This document shows positions 53,622 through 55,147 of a stretch of DNA of 64,000 nt, piece after piece. The DNA is taken from positions 545,838-609,837 of the forward strand of contig JAXLZS010000001.1 of assembly GCA_046350775.1 (NCBI GenBank). The letters run 5' to 3'. Within the stretch, counting starts at the first letter, position 1. The number at the start of each line of letters is the position of its first letter. The translations under genes and the position numbers were made by a program. The notes below the pieces were generated by a model. That model saw only the letters and a list, made by a program, of their open reading frames with translations. It was not told the origin of the DNA and made no database searches. This DNA is from Minisyncoccota bacterium (GTDB lineage: Bacteria; Patescibacteriota; Minisyncoccia; Phycocordibacterales; UBA5272).

Positions 53622-55147
53622 AGAGTTTGATCCTAGCTCAGGATGAACGCTGGCGACGTGGATAAGGCATGCAAGTCGAACGGAACTAATCACACGGAAG
53701 CATAAACAAAGTTTGAGTAGCAATACAAGGATGGAGTTTATGTGGAAGAGTGACAGTTTAGTGGCAAACGAGGTAGTAATATTTAGGAACATACCCCATA
53801 GTCTCGGATAACCGACCGAAAGGTCGACTAATACGAGATGGTCCGGTAACGGTAAAGATTTATCGCTATGGGAGTGGCCTGAACAGTATCAGCTAGTTGG
53901 TAAGGTAATGGCTTACCAAGGCTATGACGCTTAGGGGAGGTGAGAGCCTGGCCCCCACCGATGGGACTGAGACACGGCCCATACACCTACGGGTGGCTGC
54001 AGTCGAGAATCTTCCACAATGGACGAAAGTCTGATGGAGCGACGTCGCGTGATGGATGAATCACTTAGGTGCGTAAACATCTTTTATGAGGGAATAAGTT
54101 TATTGAAGGTACCTCATGAATAAGGACCTGCTAAACTCGTGCCAGCAGCAGCGGTAATACGAGTGGTCCGAGCGTTATCCGGAATTATTGGGCGTAAAGG
54201 GTCTGTAGGTTGCATGGTTAGTCTCTCGTTAAATCTTCAAGCTTAACTTGAAGCCCGCGGGGGAAACGGCCAAGCTAGAATATGCGAGGGGTGTGCGGAA
54301 CTCATAGTGTAGGGGTGAAATCCGTTGATATTATGGGGAACACCAAAAGCGAAGGCAGCACACTGGCGCATTATTGACACTGAAAGACGAAAGCGTGGGT
54401 AGCGAATGGGATTAGATACCCCAGTAGTCCACGCCCTAAACGTTGCTCTCTCGCTATTAAGAGTATCGACCCTCTTAGTGGCTTAGCTAACGCGGTAAGA
54501 GAGCCGCCTGGGAAGTACGAGCGCAAGCTTAAAACTCAAAGGAATAGACGGGGAGACGCACAAGCAGTGGATTATGTGGTTTAATTCGACGGTAAACGAA
54601 GAACCTCACCAGGATTTGAAACTAAGGAGAAAGGTCTAGAAATAGATCCCTCGCAAGACCCCTTAGCAGGTGATGCATGGCCGTCGTCAGTTCGTGGTTT
54701 GAGCTGTTCCCTTCAGTGGGGTAACGAACGCAACCCTCATCGTATGTTACAAGTGTCATACGAGACTGCCCCTCATCGGGGGAGGAAGGCGAGGATGACG
54801 CCAGGTCAGCATGTCCCTTTGACATTCTGGGCTACACACATAATACAATCGCAATGACAGCGGGTCGCGACGGGGTAACCCTGAGCCAATCCTCAAACAT
54901 TGCGCCAGTTCGGATTGAGGGCTGCAACTCGCCCTCATGAAGTCGGAATTGCTAGTAATTGCGGGTCAGCTATACCGCAGTGAATACGTTCTCGTCTCTT
55001 GTACTCACTGCCCGTCAACTCAAGGGAGCCGGGGGTACCCAAAGGCTTGAGCAATCAGGACTAAGGTAAAATCGGTGACAGGGAGTAAGTCGTAACAAGG
55101 CACGGCTAGCGGAAGCTGGTCGTGGATTAATTCAATTTGAAAAATCG
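53622..55147 (+). rRNA. rrs: 16S ribosomal RNA of normal length (about 1.5 kb) with no insertions. It has a divergent 3' end that lacks CCUCC.
   Basis: Starts AGAGTTTGATCCTAGCTCAGGATGAACGCTGGCG. Internal GTGCCAGCAGCAGCGGTAATAC and GTCGTAACAAGG. The 3' end is ...GGATTAATTCAATT where bacteria normally have GGATCACCTCCTT. Confidence 0.92.

Follow-up and report, generated by a model that had tools for sequence, protein, structure and literature searches.

The 64,000-nucleotide stretch analysed here (the window; contig JAXLZS010000001.1, with positions counted from the first letter of the stretch) carries one 16S rRNA gene, identified with the Rfam bacterial small-subunit (SSU) model RF00177, and this gene ends in a tail that has lost its anti-Shine-Dalgarno (anti-SD) motif. 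We consider it likely, and hold with good confidence, that the gene encodes an intact 16S rRNA whose 3' tail has been rewritten from GAUCACCUCCUUA to GAUUAAUUCAAUU, that there is neither an anti-SD in the rRNA nor a Shine-Dalgarno (SD) site in the mRNAs, and that translation in the source organism starts independently of SD pairing. Judged by its 16S relatives and by the lack of uL30 between uS5 and uL15, this organism belongs to the Patescibacteria, or candidate phyla radiation (CPR).

The 16S rRNA gene occupies positions 53615-55137 of the + strand and matches the SSU model over its full length (1333.6 bits, in an untruncated alignment to model positions 1-1533 of 1533). Directly 5' of helix 45, positions 55089-55100 read GTCGTAACAAGG (that is, GUCGUAACAAGG), and helix 45 itself is intact (55101-55124, + strand): it consists of CACGGCUAGC, a GGAA loop and GCUGGUCGUG, and both the structure line of the covariance model and the sequence pair 55101-55110 with 55115-55124. 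The same helix is found in relatives, with compensatory changes between clades. Beyond it, the covariance-model alignment places the 13 unpaired terminal model positions, GAUcACCUCCUUu, on GAUUAAUUCAAUU (55125-55137, + strand), at the highest posterior probability in every column. The absence of an anti-SD from the 16S 3' end, as claimed in the preliminary description of this DNA, is borne out by this full-length alignment, and so is the replacement of CCUCC; the replacing sequence had been given as AAUUC, which is one base out of register, since the aligned counterpart of the anti-SD core is AUUCA (55130-55134), a shift that is immaterial to the result. CCTCC does not occur on the + strand anywhere between 53300 and 55600, an interval that includes the trailer up to and beyond the processing helix described below, and the single CTCC or CCTC within 55090-55420 lies inside the terminator hairpin, at 55374.

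Breaks and wrong joins at rRNA genes are frequent in assemblies from metagenomes, and only 64 kb of this genome is visible; the tail might accordingly be imagined as a mis-assembled, chimeric or pseudogene 3' end, with a working 16S gene and a normal anti-SD located elsewhere. We regard such an artefact as exceedingly improbable, given that the match to the covariance model is full length, that over 20 independent assemblies, which come from different studies, have the same or a near-identical tail, that the trailer leads on to a terminator and to a strong helix with the leader, and that the absence of SD sites from 57 genes agrees with the rRNA.

This last line of evidence comes from the protein-coding genes, and is independent of the anti-SD loss. 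The gene set comprised 57-59 ATG-start open reading frames (ORFs) that do not overlap longer ORFs, with starts set by the longest-ORF rule, and most of these genes were confirmed by family models (tuf, fusA, efp, secY, secD, secF, map, recG, alr, rsmI, murA and 21 ribosomal protein genes). Between positions -20 and -4, GGAG, GAGG and GGAGG were each found upstream of none of the 57 ATG-start genes, and AGGA upstream of one; the corresponding rates upstream of internal ATGs are 8.3% for GGAG, 4.5% for GAGG, 1.7% for GGAGG and 7.5% for AGGA. The fraction of G in the 20 upstream bases is 4.8%, compared with 16.8% window-wide. Duplexes with a canonical anti-SD average -0.52 kcal/mol at genes, -3.65 kcal/mol at internal ATGs and -2.92 kcal/mol at random sites, and an energy of -4.5 kcal/mol or below is reached by 2% of genes and by 25-35% of control sites. 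Scanning the window for an SD-like 5-mer followed by a start codon returned matches only inside coding regions. SD motifs are depleted, not enriched, upstream of the genes of the window, in keeping with the earlier statement that these genes have no GGAGG-like motif, and the evidence from the rRNA and that from the mRNAs agree.

The start codons share a sharply defined context. In a frequency matrix of the 57 genes it reads A(-8) W A A A W W U(-1) AUG: positions -8, -6, -5 and -4 have A in 41-44 genes each (41 at -6), position -1 has T in 45 genes, and -3 and -2 have A or T; A stands at -3 in 28 genes, and at -12 in 31. Each position between -13 and -1 carries 0.3-0.64 bits of information, and each between -40 and -27 at most 0.1 bits. 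A leave-one-out position weight matrix (PWM) spanning -15 to -1 separated true starts from 1865 other ATGs with an area under the curve (AUC) of 0.955, and 59% of the starts outscored the 99th percentile of the other ATGs; the signal exceeds the expectation from base composition by far. The single large outlier, at 186, is the C-terminal portion of an ORF that extends beyond the window. Folding energy in 40-nt segments is -1.2 kcal/mol at starts and -3.3 to -4.7 kcal/mol elsewhere, and extra ATGs just upstream of starts are fewer than expected (5 observed, 12.1 expected).

Recurrent A/T-rich start contexts had been reported in the preliminary description, and every example quoted there was located: ...aaatttATG at 7812, 9655, 16812 and 18406, ...aaatatATG at 8988, 16401, 25493 and 52841, and aaatattATG at 1077; the pattern to which they belong is position-specific. 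Among the start regions, all on the + strand, rpsJ (uS10; 7802-7814) reads gttataaattt ATG, and rplD (uL4; 8978-8990), which begins 18 nt past the rplC stop codon, reads ataaaaatat ATG. Upstream of the 16S gene, a gene of 155 aa has atataaatat ATG (52831-52843), rplO (uL15; 18396-18408) has aataaattt ATG with a leave-one-out score of 10.1 bits, and the top-scoring context, at 10.9 bits, is the aaataaattt ATG of rplP (uL16; 35368-35380).

SD-independent initiation, as proposed in the preliminary description, is the only reading that fits these observations; the further suggestion that it might be leaderless-like fails as a general mechanism. In mainly leaderless initiation, most mRNAs would begin at or next to the AUG, and the 70S ribosome would bind the 5' end directly. 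Three genes of the window, recG (38356), a phosphoketolase gene (40737) and a 134-aa ORF (56871), do carry a TATAAT-like -10 box that ends 6 nt before the ATG, and their box regions (38341-38358, 40720-40739 and 56856-56873) mark candidate leaderless mRNAs; at recG, on the + strand, the region consists of TGATATAAT, 6 nt and the ATG. In higher-GC relatives, TATACT or TATAAT likewise stands 6-11 nt upstream of the ATG in many genes. We nevertheless judge it unlikely that most genes start in this way. The top PWM scores fall mostly on operon-internal ribosomal protein genes with spacers of 4-30 nt, and it is impossible that every one of these has its own promoter; if the conserved ATAAAT (-8 to -3) served as a -10 box, the transcript would begin within the ORF. 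The clear -10 cases number only three, whereas most genes carry the conserved context from -8 to -1.

Another alternative holds that the SD was re-coded, the rewritten tail pairing with a new mRNA element, for example UAAAUU (-7 to -2) with AAUUUG of the tail (55134-55139). The commonest context, AUAAAUUU followed by AUG, indeed holds UAAAUU, which can form five A-U pairs and one G-U pair with this AAUUUG, and 6-mers complementary to the tail are slightly over-represented upstream of genes (117 observed, 86 expected). Against such a replacement SD, which we consider highly unlikely, duplexes with the real tail average -1.78 kcal/mol at genes and -1.48 kcal/mol in composition-matched shuffles, and are not better than those at internal ATGs, and when the tail is extended to 55145 the values become -2.43 and -2.38 kcal/mol. 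The A/U duplex of UAAAUU with AAUUUG has negligible energy, and would lie right against the start codon; the canonical place of an SD site is several nt upstream of it. In an unbiased test of 5- and 6-mers the only well-populated enriched k-mer, ATAAA (38 genes, 23.9 expected), is not complementary to the tail, and relatives with an AAUGUG tail have no matching CAYAUU context. A re-coded SD/anti-SD pair, which is class iii in the relevant passages of a published survey (PMC10783764), was rejected on the grounds that tail pairing equals that of shuffles and that the k-mer test lends it no support.

Relatives were collected by scanning the 17-mer GUACUCACUGCCCGUCA against one genome per GTDB species, which yielded at least 120 matches; 95 of those listed are Patescibacteria 16S genes with readable 3' ends, a sample biased by this search pattern and by its restriction to the matches listed. 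The 17-mer is the decoding centre of the window's 16S rRNA (55001-55017), for which the universal sequence is GUACACACCGCCCGUCA; it has U at 55005 and 55009, corresponding to A1396U and C1400U (E. coli numbering) at two bases that are normally invariant, and both changes are common to most Patescibacteria among the scan matches listed. The close 16S relatives among the matches listed are all metagenome-assembled genomes (MAGs) of Patescibacteria, the nearest species representative there being L024, a MAG labelled Ca. Elulimicrobiales with 94.6% 16S identity over 1509 nt, and the next L072, with 94.3%. In both, the tail is identical to that of the window and the start of the trailer is near-identical, and the change is in this sense shared with related bins. 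Among the matches listed (95 Patescibacteria 16S genes), CCTCC is lost in 75, partial, as CCTC or CTCC (mostly CCTCA), in 9, and canonical in 11. The earlier characterisation of the loss as uncommon holds across bacteria but not within this lineage, both by the count of 75 of 95 among the matches listed and by the relevant passages of two published accounts (PMC9297842, PMC10783764).

Tails of the lost kind include GGAUCAAUUAAACUA, which characterises one large group, and GGAUUAAUUCAAU(U/G)UGAAA or GGAUUAAUUCCAAAUUGGAAA, which occur in the group of the window; a core, GGAUYAAUUM, is common to the lost forms among the matches listed, down to ~72% 16S identity. Because this core holds across clades that are only ~72% identical in 16S, the comparison points to an ancestral change, one old event that would then have been conserved. 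In relatives that retain CCUCC, SD-like motifs are also rare, being present in a few members of a small set of ~36 genes whose starts were predicted by a crude rule, which suggests that disuse of SD sites preceded the loss of the anti-SD.

We propose that, in SD-independent initiation of this kind, the 30S subunit would load, with no pairing of rRNA to mRNA, on the A/U-rich and unstructured region, possibly helped by S1, and the start would be chosen by the interaction of the AUG with the initiator tRNA together with the local context. U(-1) could lengthen codon-anticodon pairing to A37 of the initiator tRNA, an idea that goes back to earlier work in E. coli, and the A-run may favour a conformation of the mRNA channel or the binding of S1. 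In tightly packed operons, with spacers of 2-30 nt and TAA often within the motif, initiation may be largely a matter of coupling or re-initiation, and the few promoter-proximal genes noted above (38356, 40737, 56871) could be leaderless. The anti-SD could have decayed because its usual constraints were relaxed across the radiation, SD pairing having fallen out of use. A second constraint on the tail, recognition by Era, would also have been lifted: Era reads GAUCACCUCC, and era is missing from most CPR (PMC10582724).

Several points weigh against this account. Its mechanistic part is drawn from DNA alone, and the evidence spans only 64 kb of the genome, a stretch that contains no gene for S1 (rpsA), bS21 (rpsU), uL1, Era or an initiation factor. 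Gene starts were assigned by the longest-ORF rule, and several of them, not all, were compared with family models. In some 4-nt spacers the TAA of the motif is the stop codon of the upstream gene, and the context signal may partly reflect operon packing. The relatives, finally, present an observation that the proposed model leaves unexplained: among predicted genes of relatives with the same kind of tail, 11 of 111 (~10%) have an SD-like motif at SD spacing, compared with 4.1% at internal control sites and with 2 of 111 when the upstream interval was shifted (p = 0.006). This is seen most clearly at a small gene next to the 16S promoter, of which L024 and L072 carry orthologues (L024:3006-3341 and L072:4495-4797, both on the - strand when the genomes are oriented with the 16S gene on the + strand) whose SD-like motifs are aaaGGAGGaaaaATG and taGGAGGagtaaaaATG, respectively; the two products have 51% amino-acid identity and no Pfam match. 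The other genes with such motifs (in L065, L056, L095, L082 and further relatives) are unrelated accessory genes, including those for GGDEF and NUDIX proteins. Among the window's own genes, no such SD-like motif was found.

The surroundings of the 16S gene form a coherent transcription unit. A putative promoter at 53380-53408 (+ strand; TTGCAT, a 17-nt spacer and TAATAT), identified by consensus match only, has the same hexamers and spacing as the putative promoter upstream of the L024 16S gene. A 58-nt leader arm (53557-53614, + strand), abutting the 16S 5' end, is predicted to form the duplex of a pre-16S processing helix with a trailer arm (55300-55355, + strand) that starts 163 nt past the model 3' end; the duplex energy is -45.8 kcal/mol, compared with a shuffle mean of -19.2 kcal/mol. 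Five relatives have an equivalent processing helix of different sequence, with the trailer arm starting 119-208 nt past the model 3' end. A terminator-like hairpin with a U-run (55364-55399, + strand; fold -16.1 kcal/mol) marks the end of the unit, and it also gave a weak hairpin match in the covariance-model run on the 3' end. Because no 23S rRNA gene is present in the window, and none adjoins the 16S gene in 19 relatives, L024 among them, the 16S gene is a stand-alone unit in this clade. tRNA-Ile(GAU), which is normally located in the 16S-23S spacer, lies at 57860-57933, 2.7 kb downstream of the 16S gene and past four protein genes.

The processing helix encloses a structured trailer, and the first structure within it falls on the rewritten tail. 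A possible mini-hairpin (55131-55141, + strand; UUCA, an AUU loop and UGAA) occupies the former anti-SD position and reaches 4 nt beyond the model 3' end. Of 19 distinct tail types, 14 can fold here into a hairpin with 4 or more Watson-Crick pairs, compared with 23% of shuffled tails, and the stems vary by tail type (UUCA/UGAA, UUCCA/UGGAA, UUCC/GGAA, UUUC/GAAA, UUUU/AAAA). This is a simple count of hairpins against shuffles, which is weaker than pair counting; an ungapped MAFFT alignment had put the 3' arms out of register. Coming from related sequences with weak stems, the evidence for the mini-hairpin is suggestive only. Conservation across tail types reaches ...GAAAUCG(U), near 55148, and then ends: AAAUCGU (55142-55148, + strand) is the final segment to be conserved in all three of the tail types A, B and C in an alignment of 23 relatives together with the tail list, and the mature 16S 3' end may lie within it. 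Immediately downstream is a second trailer hairpin (55149-55170, + strand; GCA-CACGC, a UAUA loop and GCGUG-(CA)-UGC), the position of which is taken in relatives by other palindromes, namely CACCGAUAUCGGUG in L024, CACCCAAUUGGGUG in L040 and CACCGAAUUCGGUG in L060.

These features raise the possibility, compatible with SD-independent initiation, that the conserved tail is retained when the rRNA matures and itself serves a function, either as a cis hairpin that fills the platform cleft where the SD helix would sit or as a maturation signal; it would in that case be something other than drifted sequence. The ~22 nt that follow helix 45 are conserved from one tail type to another (GGAUUAAUUCAAUKUGAAAUCG), the GGAUYAAUUM core is common to clades only ~72% identical in 16S, the varying-stem hairpin recurs more often than in shuffles, and 119-208 nt of trailer are left inside the processing helix. 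The hairpin is however very weak, at about -2 kcal/mol, the related sequences offer few independent compensatory events, and the conservation could reflect just a nuclease or assembly site; on balance we think a tail function of this kind rather improbable. More specifically, and as something of a long shot, the tail could be a conserved new terminal element, with the GGAUYAAUUM core and varying-stem hairpin making up ~22 nt that would be kept in a mature 16S rRNA exceeding the usual length by ~10 nt, with the hairpin lying where the SD/anti-SD helix docks. If so, the hairpin would be a built-in stand-in for that helix, allowing the 30S subunit to initiate on A/U-rich mRNAs without pairing, and the SD-like motifs in ~10% of the relatives' genes would be read by something else or belong to foreign genes.

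Some further features of the window stand apart from the tail. Within the 16S rRNA, the 530-loop pseudoknot pair G505-C526 reads U-A (54129 and 54150; CUGCUAA ... CAGCAGCAGCGG), a double change that is compensatory and also introduces a mismatch at the site of the common 515F primer, and the helix 6 region of the 5' domain is expanded to 67 nt (~53688-53754) from the 14 nt of the SSU model. The ribosomal protein cluster (6577-37346) is broken up and reordered: it runs tuf-S10-L3-L4-L23-L2, S12, a 1496-aa GDSL-lipase/S74-domain protein, S14-S8-L6-L18-S5-L15-secY-map, an unknown gene and S7-fusA, followed ~9 kb beyond by S19-L22-S3-L16-S17-L14-L24-L5. Between S5 and L15 uL30 is absent, and so is uL29 between L16 and S17, which are only 54 nt apart. 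Three large S74 "chaperone of endosialidase" proteins (186-914, 1077-4574 and 11525-16015) share repeated DNA, the antisense ORF peptides at 2101 and 12714 being identical, as are those at 484 and 15552; the three are probably paralogues of a surface or tail-fibre-like kind, one of them inserted within the ribosomal protein region. Genes across the window end in TAA 49 times, in TAG 8 times and in TGA twice, TGA being nearly avoided. An alternative genetic code was rejected, as ORFs are long under table 11 and the standard bacterial code is adequate.

Loss of the anti-SD is already published for CPR/Parcubacteria, and the window organism adds a further member to this group: it lacks CCUCC, its SD sites are scarce, its tail variant is typical of the lineage, and it belongs to the CPR. 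In the relevant passages of Tsurumaki et al. (2022, RNA 28:1041, PMC9297842), an anti-SD motif was detected in only 48% of Parcubacteria, the lineages without it overlapping the group that lacks uL1, and Parcubacteria are described as lacking uL30, as having lost uL29 in particular lineages, as often being without bS21, and as having enlarged uS10, uS12 and uL23 and rRNA indels. The window resembles these Parcubacteria in having a CPR 16S rRNA without CCUCCU, no uL30 or uL29 in the ribosomal protein cluster, N-terminal extensions on uS10 and uL23, an enlarged uS12, and rRNA indels; the replacement tail, the start context and the SD statistics are not described in those passages. The 2024 PLoS One survey (PMC10783764), in its relevant passages, distinguishes an SD-scarce class without CCUCC that includes Ca. 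Campbellbacteria, Ca. Wolfebacteria, SR1 and Peribacter. As in this class iv, the window shows no CCUCC, SD-like pairing in a few percent of genes, and a variant common to related species; the organism is not among the representative examples in the relevant passages of the survey's main text, which give no CPR context motif. The relevant passages of both papers also contain no description of a hairpin-capable conserved tail, of a 163-nt trailer within a processing helix, or of SD-like motifs in ~10% of genes of relatives. The window overturns nothing, as publications on Parcubacteria already report the phenomenon; it offers a clean, well-documented example of a bacterial ribosome that, on this evidence, would be unable to use SD pairing, and its sharp start context could improve gene-start calling in CPR genomes.

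Among bacteria outside the CPR, a close parallel in the mRNAs is found in the Bacteroidia, which have been studied more than any other SD-independent bacteria; their starts are Kozak-like, and the anti-SD is retained and hidden under bS21, bS18 and bS6 (Baez 2019, PMC6847099; Jha 2021, PMC7797042). Low GC, an unstructured start region, a positive role of upstream adenines and fewer extra AUGs near the start are common to both, whereas the anti-SD of the window has been lost by substitution rather than sequestered. The favoured adenines appear to differ in part, being A-3, A-6, A-12 and A-13 in Bacteroidia (PMC6847099), and A-8, A-6, A-5 and A-4 together with U-1 in the window, where -3 is A or U; of the Bacteroidia positions, -6 has A in 41 of the 57 window genes, -12 in 31 and -3 in only 28, and the strongest positions of the window are -4, -5 and -8, with U at -1. 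Leaderless initiation likewise needs no SD, and a few window genes have the right promoter geometry, but the genes of the window are mostly operon-internal and carry a conserved context directly 5' of the AUG, which is absent from leaderless mRNA. The loss itself has counterparts in organelles and in endosymbionts whose genomes are tiny (Lim 2012, PMC3457768; Nikolaeva 2021, PMC7782861), where, as in the window, CCUCC and SD sites have been lost together in reduced, AT-rich genomes. In insect symbionts and Mollicutes, however, the losses are scattered and recent, whereas the window and most of its sampled relatives appear to have inherited one ancient change, in which the replacement sequence has itself been conserved.

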